Program-made: the position numbers and the translations under genes
Notes under the pieces: model-generated
What the model saw: only the letters and a program-made list of their open reading frames with translations
Told to the model about the DNA's origin: nothing
Databases searched by the model: none
Assembly (NCBI GenBank): GCA_000708835.1
Contig: DF237765.1
Span: 1-32,100 of the forward strand
Direction of reading: 5' to 3'
DNA from: Klebsormidium nitens
Lineage: Eukaryota > Plantae > Klebsormidiophyceae
DNA length: 32,100 nt
In this document: positions 1,069-32,002 of the stretch, in pieces
Layout of the letters: each line of letters starts with the position of its first letter
Position numbering within the stretch: position 1 is the stretch's first letter

Positions 1069-3135
1069 TCAACCATCAGAACAATCCTACTGGCAGGCAT
1101 GGCGGAATCGACATTGACATTGGATGTACTTTGTAAGGCTCGTGAGAATTGCCTCAGATGCCAGTGCGAAAGGAATCAGCATAAGAGGGGATTCCGGGAC
1201 TTTCACCTGGTGCTCAGATTGCTCCGAAAAGACCCCAATTGCCAGCTCATGGGCTATCGTCTGCGGACTCTCTTTGATGGATGCGACTTTGATAGACTTG
1301 GAAGATTAGTCCTTCAGATGCCCGATGGAGACGAGAAGACACTTATCGATCTGGTCGGTCCTTGCAGGAGGGCACGGAGGGACAACAGCCTGCCCCTGCA
1401 ACGGACATCAGAGCTCAGGCCGGGCGCTTCCTTGGGCTCGTCGGAGAGGGCGAATGCCGCGTGATGGAACCCGCCGGGGTCGGACGGCCATTGCTCAGGC
1501 TCTATGTGTCCGCCTGGGATCACAACGGTTGTGGCAGGGCAAAGCGACTAGGGAAGCCCGACAAGACCTCTGCGCTCCTCGAGCAGGTCTGGTGGGACAC
1601 GCGAGGCCAGCTCAACTGCACGTGCGATCGAGGGCGCCTCACCGAACACGCGCCGTGCGTCCACAAGCTCACCATGGCGGCCCTCAGCGAGGGATGGTCG
1701 GCTGGGGCCGATCTGCCTACGGTGCAGGAGCTGAAGCGAGGCGTGAGGGTCGAGAGATTGGCCTCAGACGAGAGGGGGGACTACCTCGCCGTGTTGGACA
1801 ACCCTTCCGGTGCGTTGAGCCCCCAGCGGCGGATGTTGTTTTGCTCCACGGGGGGCGCTTGGTATTGCGAGGGCAAGCGAGACGGTTGCCCTTCGTTGAC
1901 CGATTGCTCGCACGTCAGCGCAGCCAGGTTTGCTCTCGAGAAGGGGCAGCTTTCCTCGACACAGAGTCTAGAGCTAGCACCAGAGACGCTCGCAAGGGCC
2001 GCGCAGTGGCTCGAGCGCTGGGACAGTACCCCTCCTCGGATTGGGGTGCCCACGGCGGGCGCAACTTCTGGGAGGTTGCGAGCATCCGTCCCGGATGAGG
2101 AGCGAGGCGAGGCTGAGCTGACGAAGGAGCAACGGTACCTCATGGGGTTGCTCGCAAAGCAGCCGCACGAGGGAGCGGCCTGTGCCGGGAGCTCGTGCTT
2201 CTGCAAGAGGCACGCCTACCTCTTCGGTGAGGCGCGGCCGCCATCTGAAGCAGAGGCAGGGGGAGGAGAGAGGATTACTCAGTCAGGAACGCACGCGTCG
2301 AGGGATGCCTCAGCGGGGAGTCCGCCTCGCAAGCGCTCGCGGAGGTCGAAAGCTTTTTGGGAGGCGAAAGCAAAGGCGCAAGTGCCGGCGCTTCGCAGCC
2401 GACCTCCGGAGAGGCGCGCGCCGGCCGCAGACGCTCGTGGCAAGGATGCAATCCACGGGTGGGTAGCCGCCTGCTCGGGCTGCACGTTGGCCTCGGTGGC
2501 TGCAGTGGGTGGGTGCAGCCATGGGGAGGAGGAGCGCATCACGTCTCCTGTGATGCTCATTGGCACCGAGGCGGTCCAGCTCACGAAACCGAAGCTGGCA
2601 AGGTTGAGCGACGCGACGAACTTCCATGATCCTTGGTTGACGGCATTTGGAGAGCCCCCGGTCCGGGTCAGCAAGCTCCGGGATTGGCACTTTCAGAAGC
2701 TTTCCGACCTGGGCCTGCTGAGCGCGCCCTGTCCAATAGAAGCCCCTCCGTGCGGCGGCACGTGGAAGGAGGTATGGGTCTCGAGAGGCTTCCGTCACAG
2801 CCTCGCAATGGAGCCAGAAGGTTCGGGTGCGGATCTACCACTGCACGTGTCTCGACCAGGCCCACACGATCCATTTCGACGGAGAGCACCTCGGCCTGTA
2901 CACCTGGAACCGGCAGACCCTCTTCGTTCAGGAGAGCCTCCAGCTCATCCTCAGAGGCATGCAGAAGGGCCATTCCTTCAAGGCGGAGCTATCCAGAGAC
3001 CAGGCCGCCTTCGAGAGGTCCCCGGGGGCGGAGGTCCTGAACGAGGAGACGTGGCGCAGGGCGAGTCTCGACTTCTTCAAGCTGGTCGGCCTCGGTATCC
3101 GAGACTGCTGCACGCTGTGCGGGCCCCACCCTAAG

Positions 3136-3356
3136 GTGAGCGCATCGTGCAGTACGGTCGTCTCAAGGCCGCAACTTGTTTGGGAGATTCGTAAATAGCA
3201 AGGGGGGCTGGGCTGCGGAACACATTGACAGATCTTTGTTCTTTGTGAAAGAAGGTGTTTCCAGAATTGCAAGTGGGTGCAATTGAAGTCCGATGTACAC
3301 GTATAATCTGGGCAAGTTTGGATTGCAACCGCTTCGGTGCGCACACGTACGCGTAG
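3136..3356 (+). other. Spliceosomal intron in the KDZ transposase gene
   Basis: AAG|GTGAGC ... CGTAG|GTG CTT CTG TGC GAC GGG. Removal gives the expected C..CGPHPKVLLCDG. Confidence 0.85.
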
Positions 3357-4891
3357 GTGCTTCTGTGCGACGGGATTGTCGGACTGGCAAACTCGGACGG
3401 CGGGAAGAAACCGGGCGGCCTCGGCAGCGCGACCCTCGACACGCGGCGCACCTTCCTGCATCCGAGCAGGTTCGCGAACGGAGAGCTGCTGGAGACGAGG
3501 TCGATCTCGGGCCGCGACTTCTGCGCAGCGGGCCTCGAGGGCGGCGGCATGAAGCGGAAGCTCATCCTCCAGCCTGAGCTGCGAGAGGCGATTGCACGAC
3601 TCTCTCAGCACCGCCCGAAGGACGAGAAGCTCGGGCGGAGGCTCTCAAAAAAGGAGTTCGCGAACCTGCTGAGCGCTCTGTCGAGCGATCCCTGTACCGT
3701 CAAAGGCTTCGGCCCCGGCGAGGCAGAGGGGGCGCTGCCGGAGGACGGCAGAAGGCGGATGCTAATTGAGCAGCGTACGATGGTGAGGGACAGGAACCTT
3801 GCGCTGCTGGAGCTCCTGAAGGGCATACAAAGGGACTTCGAACGGCGTGGAATGAATCCAAAAATTTGGGAGAGCTGGATATGCGAATGGACGGAACTTC
3901 TCTACTCCCTGGGCGCCCACGACAGCGACGAGGACCTCATCGGAGGGGATGCGCTACATGTGGTCCGTAAGCTTCTCCTTGGCAGCGAAGCCTCACTGGA
4001 GGACCGACGGTCGTTGGGGAGATCGGCACCAATCTTGAGGAGGGTCCTGGATGCCTACGGCGGGCTGACCTTCCCCGCCTTCTTCATGGCGGTCCTCCAT
4101 CAGCTTTACTTGCTCACCTTGCTTGCACGAGGGTTGACGGGGTTCGAGGCGGAGGGCCGACGAGGTTGGGTCTACGACGCGATCGAGCCATTCGACAGGG
4201 CTGTTTGGCTACTCGCGGAGGAGAGGGTACGGCCGTTAGATATTGACGAGCGCAGGCGACTAGAGGAGGCACGTGCCTCGGCGAACGCGCTGCTCCCGGG
4301 CGTGGAGCAATTGGAACCGAGCCCCCAGCAGTGGGGCTCAATGGGAGGGCGGGAGAGGGCTCTGCTCTTTGAGCGGCTGGGACGAGACGAGGACGGCGTC
4401 GAGCTATCCGAGCTTCCCGCTGGGCATAGCTTCAGCGCCGAGCAGGACGCGCTGGCGCGCTACGATTTGCCGGGGTGGACGCAGTGGCGCGGCTTGCCAC
4501 ATTTCAGCAGCTTCGAGCATCCAAACGGGCTCAGCAAAGGGGCTGAGGAGTTCAAGTGTGCTACGGGGAAATCGGTGACAGAGTGGGATTTCGAGAATGT
4601 GCCCGGCCTGGTCAAGGGTGGCGGAAAGGCGGGCAAGAAGGGGGCGGTTGCAAAGCGTCCCAATCGGAGCCGGGGCATGTTCGTGTTTTGCTGTCCGCAC
4701 CGGTTGATTTATGGGTTTCATGTCATGCTGAGGGGCGAGTCTCCAAGGGATCCGTTCACCGTGCTGTTCACGCGGCTGAAGCGAGAGGACTTGCCCGAAA
4801 CCCTGTGTTACGACAACGCCTGCGCCTTGCGCAACTACTGTATGCGCCGGGCCCCGGCCTTCTTCGCCAACGTTCGATTCGTCGTTGACAG

Positions 4892-5044
4892 GTGAGCGGC
4901 TGCCTTCCTTTGCTTTTTGCAACGGGTGCATTGGCTCTTGAGTCGAATGTGTACATTCAAGCCTATGTGTGGCAAACGAACGCGCCATGTAAGTGCTAGC
5001 TCAATCTCGATTGAGTGCTGATGTACACATGTCTTGTTTTACAA
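4892..5044 (+). other. Spliceosomal intron in the KDZ gene with a mutated acceptor
   Basis: Donor AG|GTGAGC after VVD. Joining to 5045 gives VVDRFHYSK, but 5043-5044 read AA (TTTTACAA|ATTTCAC) where AG is expected. Confidence 0.65.
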
Positions 5045-5373
5045 ATTTCACTACTCGAAGGCGGGGGCCGAGGTGCATAAGTGTGGGCCCAGCAACTCCG
5101 TGGACTCCTACGACGCGCTACGCTCGGTCAACACAAGCGCGGTGGAATCGGTCAACAGCTTCCTGAAAGGCTTCCGATCGCTGGGGTGGTACAGTAGCCT
5201 GGAAAGCTTCATGGTTATCCTTCCGCTCCTTCTGGACGCGTACAATGCGAGATTAAAGCGCGTTGACGATGCCAAGCTTTGCGTTGCCATTGCAGCGGGG
5301 GCATGGACGGCTGCAATCACGAGGGCGTTGTTGCACGGCTAGTTGGGCGCGCCAAATAGCCTCGTTTGTCGGT

Positions 5374-13989: not shown

Positions 13990-14350
13990 CATGGTCGCCT
14001 ACACCGTGTCGAAGGCGATGGGTCGGGGTCTGTCCAAGCTGTCCAAGCTTTACGTGCATGAAGTATTTCCATTGTTCGACTTGATGACGACACCAGTCCA
14101 TCAGTCCGTTGTAATTGCTAATGTGGACTCGAGCAGCGGCCTGTTCGGGTTGTCCAAGCTCTGGCGCGAAGTTGTCTGTCATTCCGTTTGCTGACGGCAT
14201 CAATCTGTTGTAACTGACAGCGTCCACTTGGGCAGGGCTGTCCAGGCTGTCCAAGCTTTTGCGCACAATCCGGGAGATGGCCTCGGCATGTGTCCAGGTG
14301 TCCAAGCGTTCTACGGAACTTATTGTGGCCGCGAAATGCTGACGTCACCA
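13990..14350 (-). repeat. TGTCCA/TGACGTCA module array 3' of Rep B (inverted relative to the 22.2-23.0 kb array)
   Basis: Paired (C/G)TGTCCAAG motifs at ~14030, 14150, 14240 and 14295, and GCTGACGTCA at ~14338. Exact reverse-complement matches: 14175-14195 with 22322-22342 (21 nt) and 14094-14117 with 22410-22433 (24 nt). Confidence 0.85.
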
Positions 14351-14680: not shown

Positions 14681-17600
14681 TTAGAATTCATAATTGCACT
14701 TGATTCCTGGATAGTAATACTGCCACGGCGAGTCGTTATTCCTAAGCCTCTTGAATCTCTTCCGTTCCATTCTTCTTTTCAGCTGCTCTTTGGAGACGGC
14801 CTCGGAGGAAAAGCTATTGTAAAGCCCAACAAAATCATTCTCCAAAGTCGAGTGCCCTTCCCCGAACTCGCAGTGCTGGTCGAGAAATAGCTGCAGCTTG
14901 TCCATCTCGCTCAGGTACTCACGTGTCGCGTTCCGCACTGCCTCAGGAGGAAAACCGAGCCCGTTTGCGCTAGCATACCACTCGACGGAGCCGCGGGCTA
15001 TCCACGAAAGGACCTGCCGAAGCGACTCCTCCTCCTTCATGCGATCCTTCAACCCGTCGTCTCGGAGGCGGTGGGTGGCGTTGGTGGGATCGAACTTGTC
15101 CGCGCCCACATAGCTGTTAGGAAACGGCATTACTCGCAAACGGCGTATGACGTTGTCCTGGACTGCGGACGCAGAGATGGTGGGGGGGTAATTCGTCTGA
15201 ACGAAGGGCGTGTGGGTGATGTTGAACTGTACGTTGCGCCCATGGAGAGGGCGCGCCTTCGTCTCGCCCCCTCCGGTCATTCCAAGGACAAGCCCAAGAT
15301 CGACCTGCTCGCCTTCGGCCGTCTCGTCGGTGATGGCGAGCCGCACGCCCATCAGCTCGTAGATGTAGTCCGTAGGCGCGTTCTTGGAGGCGACTCTCTG
15401 GCAGGGAGCCGTGACGACCGCGTCCTTAGACATGAGGCCGTAATAGTCTCCGGTTGCAGCCTGCAGCGTCTCCTTCAGGACCCCTTTCCCGTTTCCTGCA
15501 AAACGACGGAGAAACGAGCTCAACTCAAGATAACAAAGATGATTCAGCAAGCATTCACGCCTTCAGGCACACGGAAGAAAGCTGGTCGGATCGCTGGTCG
15601 TGGTATAATGAGATGCATAATCTGTTGATTTAGAGATCTATCAATGTTTAAGGCCGTCCATCCGCATAGAGCTCCAAACTGGTATATGGGCTCTTTTGGC
15701 AAACGCGATGTGGCCAAGAAGTCGCACAGAACGCTGAGAAGCGAAAAACCGTTGGACGACTAGCTACGAGCGGCCAGGCCTGATGCTACTTGACATCCAA
15801 AAAGCACATCACACACTTTCTGGACGACAAGAATGGAAACAAAACCGAGGCCTGGCTTGAACTCAGCAGCAATCTCCTTCCAAGACTAAGCCCGACAATC
15901 TAGAGACCTTACCTCCCGCTCCGAGCAAGAGCACAAAAATCTCCTCCTGGGTACGGCCGTTCAGGGCCAGCCAAACAGCTTCCGCATGTAGTCCACCAGC
16001 TCGGAGTCGTGGTTGAAGATGTCGCCCAGAAAAGCATCCATGAGAGGGCTTGGGTAGTCGATCCCCTGCAAAGACAGGTTCTTGGTGTTACGGACGGATA
16101 TACAGGCTCCTTGCCTTTTTGCCTCAAAAGCAATGGAGCAGATCGTAGATGCACGTCCTCAGAGTTAAATGTCAGCAAGATTGTAAAGAGCCAAAATCAC
16201 AACGGAAGAAGAATCCAGCGGCAAAGGATGCACGCCAACGCCTTGCTCGTGTCTTTCACAGGCAGCCAAAAGTGCGCGCTTTCACGAGACCGTAAGAGAA
16301 CGAGAAGGTCGTTCAGGGGCTCCCAGCAATCAATAGCGTGCTAGCCAACGAAGTCCTTTTGGAAGCAGCATGGGGTGCTTACCTTGAAGTCCGTCTCCGT
16401 GATCTTGGAGCACATGTATTGGGGCCTGTGCGCATCCAGCTCGCCCGTCCTGAGAAGGAGCACGCCGTTCTTGACGTTCAGGATATCCGGGTTTGCGTCC
16501 AGCTGCTGGGCGAGGTCGTCAGCGGACAACTCCCCCTTAATGAGCTCAAGCGTACTGGACATCTCACGGGTGTTGTTGTAGGTGCGCAGGTGCTTAAGCT
16601 GCAGGAATAGCTCCTCCTTCTTCTCCTCGTCAGTGGTCGCCTTAATCTTTGCGCTCCACTCGTCCCTCACTCGCGCGTACACGATCCTGAGCTGATTGAT
16701 GAGGACGTGCTTCACCAGGAAATCGCTCTCATTTGACACGAAGCGCCGCCCCTCCCAATGCCACCAGCGTTTCCCATCGAACCACAGCCTGCAGAAGGGC
16801 AAGTAGGACGAGTTAACCGAGGCTGGCGAGCACAATTCGGCGTGAGCTCTTGAGAAGCGCGTCCAGAGCTCTGAATGCATCAAGCAATTCTGGTCTACCA
16901 ATCCCCTTCAACTTCCATAGAAAGCCTGCTTAACCTGCACTTATAACCGCACCAAGGAGTCCAGAATAAAGTTCAAAAAAAACTCTCAAGAGATTGAAGC
17001 ACGATGATGACGTCAGCAATATCAGGCCGACGAAATCTTACACCAAACCTTGGACACTTGGACGGACTGCCAAGCCAAGCCCAGTCCGTTGTCCAAATGT
17101 CCAAGCTTCTGCCAAAAGATTCGAGCAAAAATCTGAGCGTGACGTCAACAATATCAGGCCGACGAAATCTTACACCAAACCTTGGACACTTGGACGGACT
17201 GCCAAGCCAAGCCGAGTCCGTTGTCCAAATGTCCAAGCTTCTGCCAAAAGATTCGAGCAAAAGACTGAGGATGACGTCAGCAATATTAGGGGAAATCTTA
17301 CACTAACCCTTGGACACTTGGACAGACTGCCAAGCACCTGAGACCTTCTCAATTGCAGCAAACCTCTTAAAAACAAAAATGGCTCAAAATCACCTTTTCG
17401 CTGTACAAGCGTTGGTAAGAATGATCTAGATGACGGGCGCTCCTACAAAAGCGTTTTATTGCATGTGCCAGACGAAGTTTGCCCACCTGCCACAACTCGT
17501 GTACATGGCAGCAGCAATCTTGCTGCCGCCGACGTCCCCCTCAAATGCCCAGTAGTCCACGAAGTCCTTGTGGAGGGCGTCGATCGCGCTGGCGTCATCA

Positions 17601-20600
17601 GCACGGAAGGCACGAATCTCGCCACCAATCATGGCCTCTGAGCGCGTGAGCTCTCCGATCTTTCGCAAGGGGCGGACCCCCTCGCACTCCGAGCTGTTGC
17701 AGCAATACAGCAGGGCCCTGCCGCGTACCAGCACGCTGAAGTTGTTGGAGCCGTCGTGGTGATTGCCGTTGGGGCAGCGTCGGGGCCCGTCCACCCGAAA
17801 GACGTACATCGGGCCGTTGACGCCCGTCTTGAGGCGATCGAAGCGAGAGGCGGTGTCGCCAGTATCCGCCACGCAGGCCTTGACGCGCTTCAGGATCGCT
17901 GCTGGGGGAGGCTGCTGAGGGTCTTCGACCGGACGAGGGGGTCCGAAAGCTGCGGTCTGGGCCTCGCTACAGAATATAAAAGAGTAAAGCATCACAACGC
18001 TGAAGGAAAGAAAGCAAACATGTCGATGTTCTCACATCATAGATGGAAACTGGGACAGATGAGTCAGGCTACTCCGGGCCCGGCTGTCCACCCACTGATC
18101 GACATATAAAACTACNNNNNNNNNNNNNNNNNNNNNNNNNNNNNNNNNNNNNNNNNNNNNNNNNNNNNNNNNNNNNNNNNNNNNNNNNNNNNNNNNNNNN
18201 NNNNNNNNNNNNNNNNNNNNNNNNNNNNNNNNNNNNNNNNNNNNNNNNNNNNNNNNNNNNNNNNNNNNNNNNNNGACAAGAAATGCCTTTGCTCTAGAGC
18301 TTGGACAACTTGGACAACTCGGAGAGGCCCCGACCCGATCGACGCGATCAACTACAGTGGCTTTTGGCGTCAGCATTTGCGACAAGAATAACTTTGTTCT
18401 AGAGCTCGGACAGCTCGGACAGACCCTGCTCGGACTTCCAGGGGACCGAATCTGAGGATCAAGGACTTGAGAACGTACCCGCCGCGGCGGCCCCCGCCAC
18501 CGTCCTCGCTTGGTGCTTCGTCGCTCTCGTTGTCTGGGGGGGCCCTGAGATTGGAGCGGTCCGGCAGGATCTCTTGGTCCCACTCGTAGCACCGGCACGT
18601 GCCGTCGAGCCCCACGTAGCTGCTGGGAGCGGTGTACAGCATTCCGCCACGCCCGCGCACGTCGATGCCCACCGGTTCGCCCTTGTACCGGATCCGTTTT
18701 CTATTTGCGCAGTTGCGCAGGCCGGCCTCTGCGGACTGCGACAGGGAGAAGAGGACGTGCATGCCCCCGTTGCCGGTGGTCAGGCGGGGCGTGTCCTCCA
18801 GAAAGAGCCCGTGCTCTTCGAGCATACGTTCGACCGCTTGGAAGCCCCCGTCCTTCACGTCGACGTCGACCGCTAGGATGTCGGACGCCTCCGTGACGAT
18901 GGCGATGGTGTTGCGGGACTCTTGGAGGCAGTTCCCGAGGTTGGCCTCGTTCCAGGGCTTGCGGGAGGGCCAGCGACCTGGCACCTTTCGGACTTCACCG
19001 TTCGGAAAGCGTTTCTCCTGGAGATCGTGGGTGAGGGTCACGACGCCGAGCTCGTGGAAGTGATGGGCGGCAGCCAGGATGGGGTCCGGGCTTGGTCCCT
19101 GCAGAAAGAAGAAAGCAATCTCAGATTGATTGCAGATTGATCTACATAATACTCCGAGCGCGATCCGTTCACAGACGCTTGACAATCCGAGTGCCTACAC
19201 TTTCGGACTATGCCCCGCAGCAAATCAGCATGACGTCAACAAGAACGTAGCCCATTTGGTAAAGCCTGGACGCCTGGACAGCCCATCACTTGCCAGACCA
19301 TGAATCGAAATCGGCACTGTCCAAGTTATTCCGAGCTCCACAAACAAACAGCTAAGAGCTTGTGGGATGACGTCAGCAAGACAGCGCCGCGAATACTTTG
19401 GCAAAAAACTTGGACACGTGGACAAACGCACAAAGCCAAAACTTCCACTAAAAGCAAGCCCATCAGGGGCGAACGGCGACAACTCGGGCTGTCCAAGGTG
19501 TCCAAGCTCTAGAGCAAAGTATGTCCGGTTTCAGCTTGCTGACGTCATCAAGTCCTTGCAGCTGCACTCGAGCAGAGTGTGTCCGAAGGGTCCAAGCTGT
19601 TCCACCTTTATTTATGTTCTTTCAGGGCTGGAGTGATGACCTCAGCAGACAAGCTTGAGAGACGGCTCTTCCAGGCGCCGGAATGATGACGTCAGCAAAA
19701 TTTAGCTGCATAAAACTTGCGCCAAACTTTGGACACTTGGACGGACCACCGAGCCCGGACCAGCAAGCCCAGACTGTCTTGAACCGACTTGCAAAAGGCG
19801 AGTTCTGTCAAGTTCGGCCGTGAGTCTTGAGATAGCCTGTACAATGACGTCAGCGGCTGATTCCGGCCAAGCCCGTTGCGTCATCAGCACCAGAGCGCAT
19901 TAAAGGATTACTTCCACGCCCACTTCGCGCACCTGGATTGGCGGCCAAGTGCAGAAGGGTGCTTCGAGCTCCAAATAATGAGATGAGTCAAACCCGAGCC
20001 TACCTGGCGGAAGGGCGTCGGCTCCTGCACCGCAGCGCGGGCGTTGGCGCGCGAAGGAAGTGCTGACGTGGCCGCAGACATGGAGGCATCTCGGACGGAT
20101 GGCCCGGCAGTAGCGGCCGTTGTCGCTGCGACGGGAGCCATCGGTTCGCCGTGCTGGGACACGGCCTGCACAATTTCCAAGTCGATCACATGAGAATAGA
20201 GAAGCCGAAATCAATCATCTCACCCGAGTTAACCGCACAAGAAAAGCAAATAAGACCACAACCGGGCAAGCTCCGATCAGATGTTAGGAAAGGAGACACG
20301 CCGAAGCTGATCGCGCGCGCATCAGCTTTACGAATTCGTGTACATCGTCAAACAATGTCGTGAATGCTTGGGAATGTACACGAAGGGAGGGCAAATATGA
20401 TCGACTGTACACTTTCATACGAATTGCTCAGGCCTCAACTCCGACAAGAATTTGATGCAACTTCCGAAAGACAGTCGACCATGGAAAGTGGGCACACCTG
20501 GCGCGCAAGAGACTCCCTGCGCTCCTGCCCCGAACGAGGGTCGATGCGGCAGATGCTGAAGTACTGGCGCAGCTCCTCGGATTCGCGCTCGTCGTCCCAG

Positions 20601-23600
20601 TCCCAGAAAGGGTCGTCGTCATTACGAAGGTCCCCCCACTCGCTCGATGTAGCAGACTGCCCCCCTTCCTCGGAGCCCGACTCGTCAGCTTCCGCTTCCG
20701 CTTCCGACAAGATCACCCGGCGACGACGCCGCTGACGGGGCTGCGACTCTCCACTCTGCTCGCTCTCTACGCGCTTGACCCGCTTGCGTGGCCCCCCCAA
20801 CTGAACGCCCGACTCGGTCTTTGACGGCCAGAGCTCTGCGTCCATCGCAGCGTACTCGCAGAAGGGGGGGCGGCCCAGTGCTTGAGGAGACTCGTTTCTA
20901 AAGGCACGGTCCTGTGAGGTCTCCTCGTCAGAGGACTCTTCCTCCCGGTTGAATTCCACGTCCTCAATGTCCTCTCCCTGGGAGTCTGCCTCGATGCTCC
21001 GACCGCCACTCTCCTGATAGGAATAGAAAGAAACGTATTGATCAGATCGAGCAACGGCTCACGTTTAAAATGGTGACAAGTCTTGTCCTATGATCGACCG
21101 TACCTTCAGATCGAGGTTTGTAAGCCCTTCCTCGTGGTAATACAAACGGACCAAAAGCGCCCGACTGAGGACTCAGTGGAAGGTCGTAGGTACAAACAAC
21201 GACGATTCGTGGCTGAATTCTAACGTAGACTGGGGCCGTTGTTGAAAGCCCGTGGCCGAAAACGACATACACGAGCTATCATTACAGAAATTTCGCATAA
21301 GAGCCCCGTAAAATGCAAAACGCTGAAGATTGGCGGGACATCGGGCGCCCTGTGGATCCACAAATGCAAGGAAAAACGGGCTCAAGGCAGCCCTCTATCT
21401 GATGGTCCACGTCGGCATCGGATCATATGGAGCTGTCGCTTCAGCTGCCAACTCAGAACATTAAGAAAACCTCCAGCCCTTGCGATATCTGACTTGAGAC
21501 TTCCAGCCTCCGAAATTGGCATCATCACGATTCTTTCTAAGCCTGTTCACATGGGCGTCCAAGATGTCCAAGATGTCCAAGCTTTTGCTCAAACTTTTTC
21601 GAACATTGATTTCATGACGTCATCACTACTCTCAGACCTATGGCCTGACCTTCGGATGGATGCCCGAGAAGGTCCGAGCTCTAACCCGAAGTACCCTGCT
21701 CTGTGAACTGCATTTTCACATTGTCGAATCACCGAATGTTGTGAACAGCACCATAAGAGATGCAAGAAAGCGCTCACCTCCATCCTCGCGTCCTCCACAT
21801 CCCAATCTCCTCTGCTCTCCACAGGCGTCGGGCGCGACTGCGACAAAGGCGGGAACGAGGCTGAGGCTGAATCACCCCGTCTGATGACGGCCCCGGGTTG
21901 CTCTCAACGCAACCAATCATCAAGAGGGTTGCTGCACGGATTGGAAAGACGACGATTAGGGCGCACTGCAATGCTCGATTCCCTCAGTGGACCCGGAACA
22001 GTAAGATCAAGCTGGACAAAGGGCTTCATTGTAGGGCGGAAAAACATCAGGCACTGCTCAGAGACGTGCCACGACTGACTTCCTAGGGCTTTCAGCGCCT
22101 CACCCAGCAGTGCATGGCTCATGGGCTTCCTGGAGGGCGGCGCCACCTTGAAGTTGGCCTCATCCCAAACTGCAGAAGCAAAAAGTGGCGCATTCAGCTG
22201 AAAGCTGCAAGACATTGCTGACGTCAGCAAATCGAGGACGGAAATACTTTGCGCAAAAGCTAGGACAGCTCGGACTGGCCCTGCCCAAGTCGACGCTGAC
22301 ACTTACAAAGAGATTGATGATGTCAGCAAACGGAATGACAGAGAACTTTTGCGCCAGAGCATGGACAGCTCGGACAGCTCGGACGGGCCCTGCTCGAGTC
22401 TGGCACTGCCAATTACAACGGACTGATGGACTGCTGACGTCAGCAAGCTGGACGAAGAGAATTTCGCCAGAGCTTGGACAATCTGGACAACACGGACAGC
22501 CCCTGGTCGACGCTGCGGATTGATGACGTCAGCAAACGGGTGACAAAAGAAACTTTGCGCCAGAACTTGGACAGCTCGGACACCTGCTGAAGCCCATGCT
22601 GTCAGCTTTAAGAGATTGATGATGTCAGCAATCGAAGGACGGAACTACTTTGCACCGGAGCTTGGACAGCTCGGACAGACCGTGACCCAATCGACACGAT
22701 CAACTACAGTGGCCTGATGACGTCAGCAAATCGGAGGGCGGAAATACTTTGCGCAAGAGCTTGGACAGCTTGGACACACCCTGACCCATCGATGCAATGA
22801 ACTACAAGGTCGTGATGACGACATCAAGTCGAAGGACGGAAATCCTTACGCCAGAGCTTGGACAGTTCGGACAACTCCGACAGGCCCTGCCTAAGCCTTA
22901 TGCTGTCAGTTACAAGGCTGATGATGTCAGCAATTCATGGACGAAAAAACCTTGCGCCACAGCTTGGACAGTTCGGACAGACCCTGACCCAATTCGAGCT
23001 TCAACTGCTGGTAAGAAACGACAGTACCATCGATTATGGTGAACGGGCTCACTCACCTGGCAGGCGGCAAGAGGATTTTGCTGGTTCCGCAGACGAGCTG
23101 GCCTTGTCCATCTTCCGCAGCTCCTCTTCGAGTCTCACCACCTCCGCTTTCAAACGGCGCTGCAATCGGTCCTGTACCCAGACTGCAAAAGGCAGGCGCA
23201 CTGATATGAGCTCCTGTGTGCTGACAAGCGGGCGTAGAAACCTTGACTGGTCAGTCGGGCCCAGCTGCATATGAATTCCTGCGCGCTTCATGCCGCTAGC
23301 AGAGGCCTCCCAAATCTCTCACCTGCACGGTCTTTGTCGATGCAGAAGCAGCCGTTGAAAGCGGAGTGCGCGCTGCAGAGGTATCTCGTTTCCCCCCCCT
23401 CCTTGCTTCCACGAAGCCCAAACTCCGCGGTGGCGCCGCATCGGTGGCAATGGAGACTGTGCGGATCTGGGAAGGATGTGGAGAAATTCAAGTTTCAGGT
23501 GCGAAGCTTGTGCAGTCTGAAAGCGCTGAAGCATTGCAAGCTGGGCTTGACCAGTCTGTCCAAGTGTCCAAGGTCTGCGGTAAGATTTTGAGGGCATCAA

Positions 23601-23893
23601 TCTGCTGACGTCATCCTACAGGCTTCCACATGATTGTTTGGCAAAAGCTGAGACAGGCAACTGGTGGGCACATAATGCTCTTGCTATATCGACAGCCCCG
23701 GATCCTATTCCCTCTATCAGTGAATCACAACGGAGAGTGTCCAAAGAAGTGTCCAAGGAGCGCGAGGTTTGCCCTTGGAACCCACTTCAAGTTCTTTATC
23801 CAACTCAGACTTGGGAGCAGCAACGTCGATTGCGCTTCAAAGAACGACAGACTGAAACTAGACACATAGCGAGCACTCACCTGCGCTATGCAT
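14681..23893 (-). CDS. Rep B: 12-exon gene, small Zn/coiled-coil leader - 2A-like peptide - acidic linker - Prim-Pol - UL52-type ZnF - D5_N - SF3 helicase (~1218 aa; two 1-nt deletions)
   Basis: Exons: 23893-23881, 23466-23323, 23182-23057, 22169-22104, 21931-21778, 21013-20498, 20165-20004, 19098-18479, 17966-17487, 16788-16383, 16065-15913, 15495-14681. All junctions are GT..AG. Phases match once 1 nt is restored at the C4 run 21875-21878 and at ~15970. Motifs: ILAVDVD, TTGNGGMHVLF, GIDVRGRGG; CPNGNHHDGSNNF..LYCCNSSEC; LNVKNGVLLLRTG; Walker A GAG|GNGKG, LAITDE, FVQTN, IRRL. Exons 8-12 are well supported by homology. Exons 1-7 rest on splice signals and phase only. Confidence 0.8.
17008..17340 (+). 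repeat. 132-bp tandem repeat x ~2.5 in Rep B intron 9
   Basis: TGACGTCA at 17008, 17140 and 17272 (period 132). Each full unit contains the dyad TTGGACACTTGGACGGACTG..AGTCCGTTGTCCAAATGTCCAAG. Confidence 0.95.
18116..18274. other. Assembly gap (N run) inside Rep B intron 8
   Basis: 159 Ns adjacent to TGGACA repeats (18298-18422). Confidence 0.95.
19231..19860. repeat. TGACGTCA/TGGACA modules in Rep B intron 7, including a 180-bp dyad 19368-19547
   Basis: TGACGTCAGCAAG (19368-19380) pairs with CTTGCTGACGTCA (19535-19547), enclosing TTGGACACGTGGACA and TGTCCAAGGTGTCCAAG. Further modules at ~19231, ~19687 and ~19846. Confidence 0.85.
21888..21931 (-). other. 2A/StopGo-like peptide TLLMIGCVESNPG|P
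   Basis: Codons ACC CTC TTG ATG ATT GGT TGC GTT GAG AGC AAC CCG GGG CCG directly after a CAG acceptor. Matches (D/G)(V/I)ExNPGP except for C at the D position. Confidence 0.65.
22219..22990 (+). repeat. Degenerate ~100-bp tandem array x8 in Rep B intron 3
   Basis: Units begin TGA(C/T)GTCAGCAA at ~22219, 22319, 22435, 22525, 22619, 22718, 22818 (degenerate) and 22921. Each is followed by TTTGCGCCAGAGCTTGGACAGCTCGGACA-like cores and related variable linkers. Confidence 0.9.
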
Positions 23894-25570
23894 GTTGATC
23901 GCTAAGCGTGCGCTGGGGCCAGACCCATCTCCAGAAAGGAATTGTTCAGCGCCTGCTGCGTGGATTGCGGCGCACTGCTTGTGAGGATCTTGACTCGTTG
24001 AAGTGCAGGATGAGCCACCCAGTGCTAATGTACACCGCGCCTGCAAGAATAAGCATGCACTAAGTCCAGAAGAAGATGTAACCTCTGATTGGCACTGATT
24101 ATGCTGGCATCACATGGTGCCAGGAATGCGATGCCTGCTCGAAACCATCTGCTTGACTTTGTGATGGGAGCTGACAGGGCCTCCGAAGCTGGATACTTAA
24201 CATGCCTCATGATGGTCTTTGTCTCAGAATCGCTGAGACCGGAAATTAATTGAATCCTTTGGATTGATCCTACCTGCTGCAACCTGACACCGCAATGGCT
24301 CTCAAAGCACACATACCACAACCGCTGAGGCACAGCCGCTTCTTCAGTTGCCAGCAATCAACACTTGAGGGACACCACAAATACAAGTCTATAAAGATGT
24401 TTTGTAGACGTAAAACCCCGGCAGCTTCAATAGCCACCGTTGCAGCTCAAAAGGTACCTCGTCAATGATGATTCATTCAGCAACAAGATTCAGCTTGAAA
24501 AAGGAATAGATGCAGATAGGTGCTCACCACAGAAAGTTGCGCTCCCTTGCCTCCAGCTCCCCGAATATCTGCTCAAGCCTGAGGTTCTGCAGATCGGTGT
24601 ATTCCCCCCTTGTGACTGCTGGAAAGAGCCCTCTGGAGCACCTTATATATGGTGCACCGCCGGAAGCCGCCGACAGTTGCCATCCCCTGCCAGCCAGCCT
24701 GGCAGATCTTTCTAAGCAAGCTGAGTCAGAAGATGCTCTGCTGACTCGGAAGATGGACAGCTGGCAGGGCTGCAAATAAGTGCCAGAGCCCGCCATTGCG
24801 TGCCGCAATGCGCCAATATGCCAGCAGGCTGCATAGGTGACAGCTTGCAGATTGCATGCAGAAGACAACCTGGCAATCCCCATTACTGAGGTACACTGCG
24901 AGAGAAGAGCCAAAACAGAAGAGTTGTCGTTGAGACACGCGCTACAGAAGAAACCTACAACCTGCTTCATGGCAGCCATTGCCGAGGAGTCTCGGAAGAA
25001 GCCAACCCCTGCAGTGGCTGGGCCTGGGCCTAGCTAGGTCACGGCTCTTGTTGCCCAGTCTCGTATGTCCTACGGTATATAGAAGGTTACGGGCCCCGAG
25101 GGAGCGTTCAGGGCCCCTATAGAGTGCCGCAGAGTCTAAGGATCGCCCGGGATAGGGTGAGTCCAAGCTCGAACAGCTTGCACCTTAGGGAGAATTTTGA
25201 GACCTGCCGTTTGTATGCAATGGGAGAATCGAGGCGTTTTTGCCCCTATGCTCTCTGTCCATGCGGTTGGCTGACAATTCTAAACAGAATCGGTCTTTGT
25301 AAACAGAAATCGGGTCTTCGGTTACCGATTCTCATTCAACACTTCACGTCCCATGCAACGCCTTCGTCGACTCTCATGAAAGGGGGTGGTCGGGAGCATA
25401 ACCCGGTCAGTTTTAAGCAGCCTTTGAACCCGCGGGCCGGTGTGGTTCCAAGGGGAAACCCCGTACCGAGGGGGCTGCCCACCTTCCTCCCTGCGGGGAA
25501 AGGATGGGGGGAAACAAGTTTTTGCCCCTACGTCACTGCTCGGTTGGAGCAAAATCGCCTGGCGCGGTGG

Positions 25571-30262: not shown

Positions 30263-30793
30263 AGTGGCTGTTCTCGTTTTGTTGGTAGAGCAGACTGCCC
30301 CGACTCCACGGCACCTCTGCAGAGGGAGCCAGCGCTGTCCCTGCGCACCATCCAGCCGCCCTGAAAGTACTCCTTTATGTCTCCCACTATCTAACCCTTA
30401 ACCCTCGCGACGTTGAATGGCGATCAGGACCAAGTGGCCAAGCTTGCAATGGACAGGAGCCAGGCGGTCAGCTGGATGGCTATGGTCAGTCTTGTATGTT
30501 CCCGGCCTGTGCCAATTGGTTCAGGCCCCGGGCTCTTCGTTCCTTCCCCCGGGAGCGCTGGGTAGGGCCGCTGCAGCCTGGCTCGCGACCGGACAGTACA
30601 GACCGGGCCGGGGCAGCCCGGCCGGGCAAGAAAGTCCTGGGTCCTGGATATTGTACAGTAGGTCCCAACATACTGCCCAAATAGCTTGAGAGCGTCGAGA
30701 TCGATGCGCTCGAACTTTCGCAAGGTTCCGCAGCCGGCTGACGGACCCTCGATATAAAAGTTCATCGCGTCAATATCCTGAACTTAGAGACTA

Positions 30794-31189
30794 CAGCAGT
30801 TTCGGAGCAAGCTGCCCGGTTGCGATCGATAGATAGGGTCTATTTAGTCTAAATTTAGGCTAAACTTAGTCAAAGTTTACTTACGTGGCATGACTTCGTG
30901 ACGTCTGCACAGTAAAGCTGAAGTTGCGGCACGGTGAACACTTTTTGGTTAGGGTTTTTAGTTTGGTTGCTCAGGGTCTGCCAATCTTAGGGCACATTGC
31001 TGTTAGGGCACACTAGAGTTACACGGTACATATGCCCGGTGATTGGACGATGTGCATTTAAGAACTTAGAATTTGACGTGGAGGAAACTTTAATGACGTC
31101 AAAAGGATAGCCTAAACTTTGACTAGATTTAGTGTCTAAATAGACCCTATCTATCGGTCGCAACCGGGCAGCTTGCTCCGAAAATGCTG
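30794..31189. mobile_element. MITE (396 bp), 54-bp TIRs, TA target-site duplication, Tc1/mariner-like signature
   Basis: Left TIR CAGCAGTTTCGGAGCAAGCTGCCCGGTTGCGATCGATAGATAGGGTCTATTTAG matches the right end reverse complement with 2 mismatches. TA at 30792-30793 and 31190-31191. No ORF. An approximate empty site exists at ~189-212. Confidence 0.85.
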
Positions 31190-31191
31190 TA

Positions 31192-31371
31192 GCAACCGGG
31201 CAGAAGGAGAAGGCTCGGAGTAAGGGGTCGGCCGATAGACTTAGAGGCTTGAGATCGAGCCGAAAGGCAGTTCCAAGGGGCCCGGGAAACTCGGACCGAG
31301 GAGGAGGGTGGAGCTACCGGGGACAGCGAGGTGTCGGTGACTTAGAGGAATGCGCTGCCTCAGGATAGTGA
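31192..31371 (+). repeat. Dispersed repeat, copy 2 (homologous to 201-395)
   Basis: See copy 1. It is interrupted on the left by the MITE and ends just before the AT-rich units on the right. Confidence 0.9.
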
Positions 31372-31873: not shown

Positions 31874-32002
31874 GGGGGGGCTGACGTGGTGGCCTCTGAG
31901 TGGCCCAATTTTAATGCCGAACTTCAAATGGCTTGCTGCAGCAAGGCAAATGAAGTTCGGCATTAAAATTGGGCCACTCACAGGGCGCCATGTCAGCCCC
32001 CC
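31874..32002. repeat. ~130-bp near-perfect palindrome
   Basis: Arms 31874-31926 and 31951-32002 include an exact TGAGTGGCCCAATTTTAATGCCGAACTTCA dyad. The centre CTTGCTGCAGCAAG is itself a perfect palindrome. Confidence 0.95.

Follow-up and report, generated by a model that had tools for sequence, protein, structure and literature searches.

On the minus strand of contig DF237765.1 of the streptophyte alga Klebsormidium nitens, 32,100 nt long and hereafter called the window, splicing builds a StopGo/2A-like motif that closes the leader of a gene with Prim-Pol-D5 primase-helicase exons. It is probable that the spliced motif ends a leader common to about two dozen genes, releasing this leader while translation continues, and that in the copy of the window a deletion yields the leader followed by 119 junk residues. 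The core octamer, CVESNPGP at 21911-21888 (-), is the sole NPGP in the six frames of the window, where 2.3e-4 octamers of the type (D/G/C/N)(V/I)ExNPGP are expected from the six-frame residue frequencies. The NCBI model of the locus is KFL_008160040 (P0001; P00xx labels stand for database proteins and X-numbers for sequencing runs), to which an exon of the window is 100% identical.

Reads were compared with the window for eight of the 24 listed runs, six RNA-labelled (four studies) and two DNA (X1, X2); the "RNA" label is a guess, none of these runs being recorded as RNA, and it rests on GT-AG joints confined to them. The joint 22104/21931 (GT..AG, minus strand) was present in all six RNA-labelled runs (X5, X9, X15, X6, X10 and X13) and in neither of the DNA runs, bearing out the original prediction, made from the letters of the window, of a 2A/StopGo-like peptide assembled by splicing. 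Further GT-AG minus-strand joints were observed at 23881/23466, 23323/23182, 23057/22169, 20497/20164 and 20003/19097, and loose contig ends indicate the joints 21778/21013 (ends at 21015 in X5 and X15) and 18479/17966, as well as an upstream exon ending at 24528. Counted from ATG 23893 in the spliced frame, over the upstream joints observed, the Gly of the skip site is residue 130, as had been predicted. Of the 130-aa zinc/coiled-coil protein then proposed, the leader frame up to Gly 130 with its Cys/His exon is retained and a coiled coil is indeed predicted; zinc binding is likely, given the conserved Cys and His residues. In the spliced mRNA the octamer is in frame with the upstream leader open reading frame (ORF) and fits the StopGo core, which was recently widened to the pattern given above (Li et al. 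2026, PMC12846837; here and throughout, published data are those of the sections of each paper drawn on). A Leu-rich upstream helix and a G at p11, the position preceding the octamer (p12-p19), are also present, as judged by inspection rather than with the FIMO motifs of PMC12846837. A signal-peptide role was dropped, the hydrophobic run being about 10 residues long and lying 115 residues from the start.

In word-based searches, the leader region of P0003 retrieved three shorter and seven near-length proteins, and a profile of four leaders matched 41 proteins among 1.84 billion. The 2A-like octamer was found in 22 of these 41, namely 19 leader-bearing and three unrelated 2A proteins; with five further leader proteins from the word-based searches, the family comprises 24 proteins besides the window, all with an octamer-bearing leader, so that the conservation in paralogs proposed as a check of the original prediction was found. 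Among the 20 profile matches looked up, 17 were K. nitens models and three the unrelated 2A proteins, and from K. subtile one transcript with the Cys/His part of the leader was retrieved. Paralogs splice at the same place of the helix (joints 21926/22104, 21926/22106 and 21933/22106, in RNA contigs only). Variants were counted over the 24 proteins plus the window, the rows having been picked by [ED]xNPG, so the invariance of NPG and of E/D is not evidence. Position p13 is V or I in 25/25, p12 is G in 14, C in 10 and E in one, p11 is G in 24/25, Leu is found at -11 in 25/25, and p19 is P in 16, W in seven, L in one and F in one; judged from these sequences, the family variation follows the known StopGo rules. 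In four paralogs, 31-44 of the 48 residues of the Cys/His exon are identical; the linker before the 2A has 4-7 identities out of 30 in P0017 and P0018, and the core keeps 5-6 of 8. Single-nucleotide variants (SNVs) were taken from the 40 listed of 249, with paralogs pooled: in the leader exons 11/16 paralog SNVs are synonymous, against 23% expected (p=1e-4).

Most family leaders have an extra N-terminal stretch of 100-190 residues, and the window lacks the longer extensions, since none of eight paralog extensions matched it at E<=0.1. A helix is predicted at 49-77 in the P0014 model and at 152-180 in the P0020 model. The first leader model, from four sequences (P0014), was poor (pLDDT 54) and had no structural match; the P0020 model (36 sequences, pLDDT 72) had no match at E<=0.001 in PDB or BFVD, which is no sign of a new fold, as the leader was not folded alone at depth, and the ESM Atlas gave unnamed clusters only, below 0.9. 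No Pfam family was found for the Cys/His domain of the leader, nor did Pfam bear out a resemblance to EsV-1-7 Cys repeats. At 23394-23470, paralogous leader contigs reach a summed depth of 2,300-4,100, against about 60-85 for the present copy (X6, X10), contig depth being a poor measure; some family members may thus be far more strongly expressed.

Outside the family, a metagenome scan with the leader alignment gave 179 pattern matches, none of which was confirmed. Degenerate 2A patterns retrieved seven metagenome loci and one viral locus, seven of the eight reading GCVE[ST]NPGP in an open frame, and by tblastn none of the eight matches the leader; these loci show only that C-type 2A motifs arise elsewhere. 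Two such motifs unrelated to the leader lie at 1238-1266 (-) of locus L006, before a Cys-rich and endonuclease-like ORF, and at 1622-1647 (+) of locus L009, inside a viral ORF of 2046 aa.

Behind the 2A, the family proteins differ. P0003 and P0014 run in frame from the 2A into Prim-Pol, the P0028 tail and the start of the Prim-Pol-D5 protein P0006 agree in 22/24 residues, P0029 ends in a UL9/CyRepA1-like (UL9/RepA-like) helicase, and AAA_22 matches were obtained for P0018 and P0021. A head folding like a SAM domain in a predicted model is shared by P0017, P0019, P0020, P0021 and P0022; the best row of the VIA comparison, to the LEAFY SAM domain, has a middling Z of 6.7 and covers residues 236-303 of the P0020 tail, not the leader, and in the P0020 model a helix precedes the skip site and a separate helical domain begins at residue 230. 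P0015 and P0016 had no library match and may be akin to archaeo-eukaryotic (AEP) primases. Similarity falls after the skip site, and BLAST of the tails gave one large group, linked partly by acidic stretches, one SAM/nucleoside triphosphatase (NTPase) group and three singletons. On these comparisons, the 2A belongs to a portable leader placed on unrelated tails, and not to the replicase gene as such. In P0022 (KFL_010330010) the same 2A is found twice, the 327-aa model consisting of two tandem units of leader end, 2A and SAM-like domain.

In the copy of the window, the NPGP frame, which is not that of Prim-Pol, runs 119 residues beyond the motif to a stop at 20769, 271 nt short of the next junction; the downstream protein is therefore out of frame here, and it is in frame in the paralog models P0003, P0014, P0016 and others. 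No indel was seen at 95% likeness in any run compared. The contigs of this copy, both DNA (X1, X2) and RNA (X15, X6, X10, X13), cross 21873-21878 with 0 gaps, so the lesion is a real deletion and not an assembly error. At 80% likeness, among the indels listed (46 further ones exist), paralog RNA contigs have 13 extra nt behind 21872, in agreement with P0014, and 3 extra nt behind 21806, each in 3/3 RNA-labelled runs, and a frame-preserving paralog contig is expressed. Judged from the proteins, this copy is 10 nt shorter than P0003, P0015 and P0016 at the deletion site, and tblastn places a frame change for P0016 at 21873-21876. From these alignments, the ancestor was probably in frame, the 13 nt having been lost in this copy. 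A second frame break, seen in the assembly only and escaping the original prediction, lies near 15967; the stop that follows, at 15963, comes immediately ahead of Walker A, and tblastn gives a frame change for P0008 and P0014 there; the frame through Walker A and B is thereby interrupted. Because the deletion behind the motif shifts the frame, the expected translation of this copy comprises the leader and 119 out-of-frame residues, with no replicase, and the locus is a transcribed, decayed copy. The Prim-Pol frame had been proposed to follow after a 1-nt repair: the inferred phase was right (13 = 1 mod 3, with P0003 and P0014 in frame), but the lesion to be repaired is real, being crossed gap-free by DNA and RNA contigs. 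The replicase of about 1090 aa expected from this mRNA is not supported, given the two frame breaks with their stops at 20769 and 15963, that figure (3265 nt from the Pro codon to the stop) holding only with both breaks ignored.

It is most improbable that the locus makes the leader and the full replicase of about 1090 aa all the same, through an assembly error, other splicing, -1 frameshifting or re-initiation at ATG 21783, and this model is largely refuted. The Prim-Pol exons are transcribed and spliced, and P0001 (1177 aa) does bypass both breaks, the first by means of a 71-nt GT-AG intron at 21908-21838 that removes the octamer, but this intron is not among the RNA-contig joints listed (six at 95% likeness; 15, with 20 more, at 80%), and the gap-free contigs speak against an assembly error. 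A heptamer C_CCG_GGG is found in the NPG codons, with the -1 frame open from 21903, but no 3' structure follows it (z 0.40); moreover, -1 frameshift heptamers usually have an A/U-rich second triplet, which C_CCG_GGG is without. Rescue by -1 frameshifting is accordingly unlikely and was rejected. The frame from ATG 21783, for its part, stops at 15963 after 764 aa, before Walker A.

As for activity, p12=C is more than 95% and p19=W 91.5% active in natural contexts, and C at p12 and W at p19 are over-represented in RNA viruses (PMC12846837); P19W, P19F and others exceed 80% in wheat-germ extract (Baral et al., bioRxiv 10.64898/2026.09.24.754024). The change from D to C, supposed in the original prediction to reduce or tune skipping, need not weaken it, given the published activity of p12=C in a natural viral context. 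By analogy with these peptides, the C-type peptide of the present copy is likely to skip in vivo. Snell & Matreyek 2026 (bioRxiv 10.64898/2026.06.17.732966 = PMC13405545) assayed 20-mers in human cells, and seven of these, all G-type, belong to the leader family by sequence match to family proteins or to the full protein in the table of that paper. The peptides of P0022, P0030, P0035 (with reduced protein) and GAQ93188 were classed as skipping, that of P0019 as fall-off and those of P0017 and P0020 as non-skipping, in classes assigned by a support vector machine that is 86% accurate on its own training set; this 4/1/2 count leaves out three look-alike peptides of unknown source protein (two skip, one does not) and all engineered D-variants. 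Bacterial control peptides fell in the skipping or reduction class in only 14.86% of cases (PMC13405545).

Several of these data weigh against a leader released by StopGo, namely the two non-skipping peptides out of seven and the nature of the classes (machine-assigned, from 20-mers in human cells), and further points are to be added to them. No C-type family peptide, CVESNPGP included, is found in four supplement files of PMC13405545, three large ones lying outside the search, and Leu-rich motifs ending in G at p11 are tied mainly to p12=D (PMC12846837). The motif is missing from 19 of the 41 profile matches. Fifteen of these are short, with lengths of 70-204 aa; in the longer P0024 and P0037 the model departs ahead of the motif, and two are unrelated proteins matched through a chance coil. 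No contig spans the 2A to Prim-Pol, and no fully intact 2A-Prim-Pol-D5 model was found, P0003 being partial and mis-framed over about 87 residues and P0014 being without a D5_N match. Just downstream of the deletion, 4/7 listed SNVs are synonymous in the NPGP frame and 1/7 in the replicase frame, which counts weakly against selection on the replicase frame there.

An alternative would be that there is no recoding at all, and that the segment is a conserved hydrophobic helix and linker of a fused protein resembling a 2A. The two non-skipping peptides would fit, as would the fact that those assayed are all G-type and none C-type, but release of the upstream chain is seen for five of the seven family peptides assayed (PMC13405545), the changes allowed in the family match the StopGo rules, and the profile of four leaders also retrieves the three unrelated 2A proteins through the 2A segment alone; we regard this explanation as quite improbable. 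Somewhat better placed, still unlikely, is the reading that the motif, derived from a 2A, mainly stalls the ribosome or makes it fall off, so that translation ends or is dampened; the leader would then be under selection, the tails largely passengers or decayed, and the frameshift costless. Here P0019 with fall-off only and P0035 with skipping but reduced protein (PMC13405545) would be at home, many models end soon after the motif (P0011, P0020, P0022, P0028, P0030, P0044), the downstream SNVs do not favour the replicase frame, and the depth of the broken copy is about that of an in-frame paralog (62-85 against 56-81 in X6 and X10, 10 against 7 in X13; a poor measure). Against it, long enzyme tails are in frame in P0003, P0014, P0016, P0018, P0019, P0021 and P0029, four of the seven assayed peptides were classed as skipping, and the short models may be annotation cuts. 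The restriction of p19 to P/W fits release alone too, and does not separate skipping from fall-off.

Under the favoured mechanism of release and continuation, the nascent Leu-rich helix and the octamer would inactivate the peptidyl-transferase centre, the leader would be released after Gly and translation would resume at the next codon. In intact in-frame paralogs, initiation at one site would in this way yield the leader and the tail enzyme as separate proteins. The module would act as an expression head: a single promoter and a single start codon would serve both the Cys/His-coiled-coil protein, which is released, and the tail, whose new N-terminus would be Pro (Trp in 7/25) and whose output would depend on the efficiency of skipping versus fall-off. 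In the present copy, the resumed ribosome would read the 119 out-of-frame residues and stop, and the primase-helicase would not be made by this route. From the chain of overlapping joints we infer that the leader and the Prim-Pol exons are on one mRNA. Transposition or exon shuffling may have carried the module from one mobile DNA element to another, and the leader would, on the simplest guess, be a small protein that binds zinc, oligomerises and regulates the elements in which it occurs. More tentatively, and at somewhat less than an even chance, intron-containing DNA elements of Klebsormidium would use a portable head of leader plus StopGo, shuffled before unrelated primase-helicases, helicases and NTPase/nuclease-like proteins, with the p12 G/C and p19 P/W variants tuning the amount and the N-terminus of the tail.

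Compared with known systems, viral StopGo/2A has the same core octamer, the G at p11, the Leu-rich upstream helix and rare active forms with p12=C or p19=W (PMC12846837), whereas the Klebsormidium motif is encoded in the nucleus of a streptophyte alga, by a gene with introns, one of which interrupts the upstream helix. The published tables of eukaryotic 2A-like peptides (PMC13405545, PMC12338488) already list G-type members of the Klebsormidium leader family, among them the two predicted Klebsormidium 2As of Rao et al. 2025 (PMC12338488), which match P0022; the shared leader, the intron, the C-type subfamily and the primase-helicase tails, however, are not described in the sections of those papers drawn on. 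Their main texts do not mention Klebsormidium, the words "primase" and "helicase" do not occur in the text of PMC13405545 considered, and the long table of PMC12338488 has no row for Varidnaviria, Duplodnaviria, Monodnaviria or Nucleocytoviricota. The 2A-bearing non-long-terminal-repeat (non-LTR) retrotransposons of the apurinic/apyrimidinic endonuclease (APE) type (Odon et al. 2013, PMC3708506) and the sea-urchin 2A leaders (per PMC12846837) likewise have a short N-terminal leader closed by a Leu-rich 2A before the enzyme of a mobile or rapidly evolving gene. Sea-urchin leaders and teleost RapGEF are examples of known cellular 2As. The Klebsormidium tails, in contrast, are DNA primase-helicases, NTPase or SAM-like proteins, the gene has multiple introns and the leader consists of a Cys/His domain and a coiled coil. 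No Pfam match to reverse transcriptase (RT) or APE was obtained in 27 window ORFs or in the 10 + 29 proteins scanned, and identity as an APE non-LTR retrotransposon was rejected, the tail being Prim-Pol-D5.

The Prim-Pol-D5 (P4-type) primase-helicases of phages, plasmids and small eukaryotic DNA elements have the order PF09250, PF08706, SF3 helicase, and all three regions are present in that order in the window gene, which differs in being intron-split, in the long acidic tail and 2A leader in front and in the two frame breaks of this copy. TIGR01613 on the last exon alone scores 77 bits, below its cut-off of 108.7. With regard to a Polinton-like virus or another integrated DNA virus, no capsid gene or packaging ATPase was recognised in 27 ORFs by Pfam or in nine by PHROGs, libraries that miss divergent capsids, in a window with N gaps; no element-bounding inverted repeats were found in the repeat analysis of the window. 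Scans of viral contigs gave one distant locus (34%) with Prim-Pol, and none with the helicase or the putative recombinase mentioned below. K. nitens is known to hold giant-virus genes (PMC5294986, PMC11244446). In the literature searched, neither a 2A ahead of a primase-helicase nor an account of the Klebsormidium leader family was found, though supplements and subscription journals outside the search may list such peptides, and the word "primase" was not found in the 2A literature examined.

The features of the gene are collected in Table 1.

Table 1. Layout of the leader and primase-helicase gene in the window (positions of the window; 5' to 3' of the gene, repeat sites last).
Feature	Position	Strand	Basis and remarks
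Upstream exon	24528..24670	-	24528 is the 3' end, 24670 approximate; loose ends of 128-143 nt behind 24041 (X5, X9, X15) map to 24529; GT donor
Exon with first in-frame ATG (23893)	23881..24040	-	Joint 23881/23466; NCBI models P0001 and P0014 begin here
Leader exon with Cys/His-rich domain, likely to bind zinc by its conserved C and H	23323..23466	-	Joints
Leader exon, long helix, predicted coiled coil	23057..23182	-	Joints; structure models
Leader exon, linker and first half of 2A upstream helix	22104..22169	-	Joints 23057/22169 and 22104/21931
172-nt phase-1 GT-AG intron inside 2A helix	21932..22103	-	Skipped in 6/6 RNA-labelled runs, 0/2 DNA runs
Exon with second helix half, core octamer and tail start	21778..21931	-	RNA contigs 21773-21931, 0 gaps
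StopGo core octamer CVESNPG/P	21888..21911	-	Predicted skip between Gly (21893-21891) and Pro (21890-21888)
Frame-breaking deletion	21872..21873	-	13 nt shorter than closest paralog P0014
Acidic, disordered tail exon, replicase frame	20498..21013	-	Joint 20497/20164; NPGP frame stops at 20769-20767
Ala-rich linker exon	20004..20165	-	Joints 20497/20164 and 20003/19097
Prim-Pol (bifunctional primase/polymerase) exon	18479..19098	-	PF09250 E 1.9e-13; RNA contigs in 3/3 RNA-labelled runs
Exon between Prim-Pol and D5_N, Cys/His cluster	17487..17966	-	Loose ends at 18479 (3/3 RNA-labelled runs) are its first bases; tblastn 73-78% to paralogs; 3' boundary predicted
D5_N exon	16383..16788	-	PF08706 E 2.5e-17; boundaries predicted
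Helicase exon with second frame break	15913..16065	-	Break near 15967, stop 15963, upstream of Walker A; boundaries predicted
SF3/P4-type helicase C-terminal exon to stop	14681..15495	-	phrog_1156 E 8.5e-31; TIGR01613 E 9.3e-22
Dispersed repeat of about 100 bp	14020-14270, 17000-17335, 18280-18430, 19340-19760, 21550-21590, 22200-23000, 23550-23620	both	

The large introns of the gene and the surrounding gaps are filled by this dispersed repeat, which has a TGACGTCA core and tandem TTGGACA-like words in both orientations and might serve the element family as a regulatory or origin-of-replication signal. A possible upstream ORF of 155 aa (25033-24028 (-), spliced) is found on the leader transcript, ending about 135 nt before the leader ATG. 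Overall, by Pfam, the window has two Prim-Pol-D5 genes and a weakly matched KDZ-like transposase (E 0.02), besides other fragments. The second, distant Prim-Pol-D5 gene, at 8760-5856 (-) and with about 28% identity to the family, consists of two long ORFs in different frames, its 5' part entering an N gap. The transposase at 1296-5342 (+) is a multi-ORF Kyakuja-Dileera-Zisupton (KDZ)-like gene whose Pfam match is under the cut-off. At 11076-10017 (-), two overlapping ORFs in different frames together resemble, in their motifs, a frameshifted tyrosine recombinase; this pair had no match in Pfam, PHROG, NCBIfam, PDB or viral contigs. A multi-exon gene at 30397-26579 (-) has a charged coiled-coil head, with only weak coil matches in Pfam, and its layout resembles that of Crinkler-like genes. 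The contig ends share a direct repeat (201-359 and 31192-31341, 90-92%), and the right one has a 57-nt inverted pair (30791-30847 and 31136-31192, 96%) and a 64-nt perfect-abutting palindrome (31875-32002, 89%).

The leader family is the interesting object, of which this locus is a transcribed, broken member. Sister peptides are already known from published tables, without their context; a spliced StopGo leader on streptophyte DNA-replication genes is without description in the literature searched. The locus also illustrates a blind spot of searches, in that an intron divides the 2A, and the octamer is missing from the NCBI model owing to another intron, for which the RNA contigs listed give no support. 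StopGo works in plant cells, and no natural use by plant viruses was found in the RNA-virus survey of PMC12846837. With about two dozen native, expressed variants, the family in the streptophyte model K. nitens allows a direct test of whether plant-type ribosomes make natural use of StopGo, and it offers a natural allelic series, with G/C at p12 and P/W at p19. The range of 2A is widened by it beyond RNA viruses and retrotransposons to include genes for DNA primase-helicases; if the reading of a shuffled, portable head is true, 2A recoding would occur naturally in genes of DNA replication and within the plant lineage, whose viruses seem to do without it.

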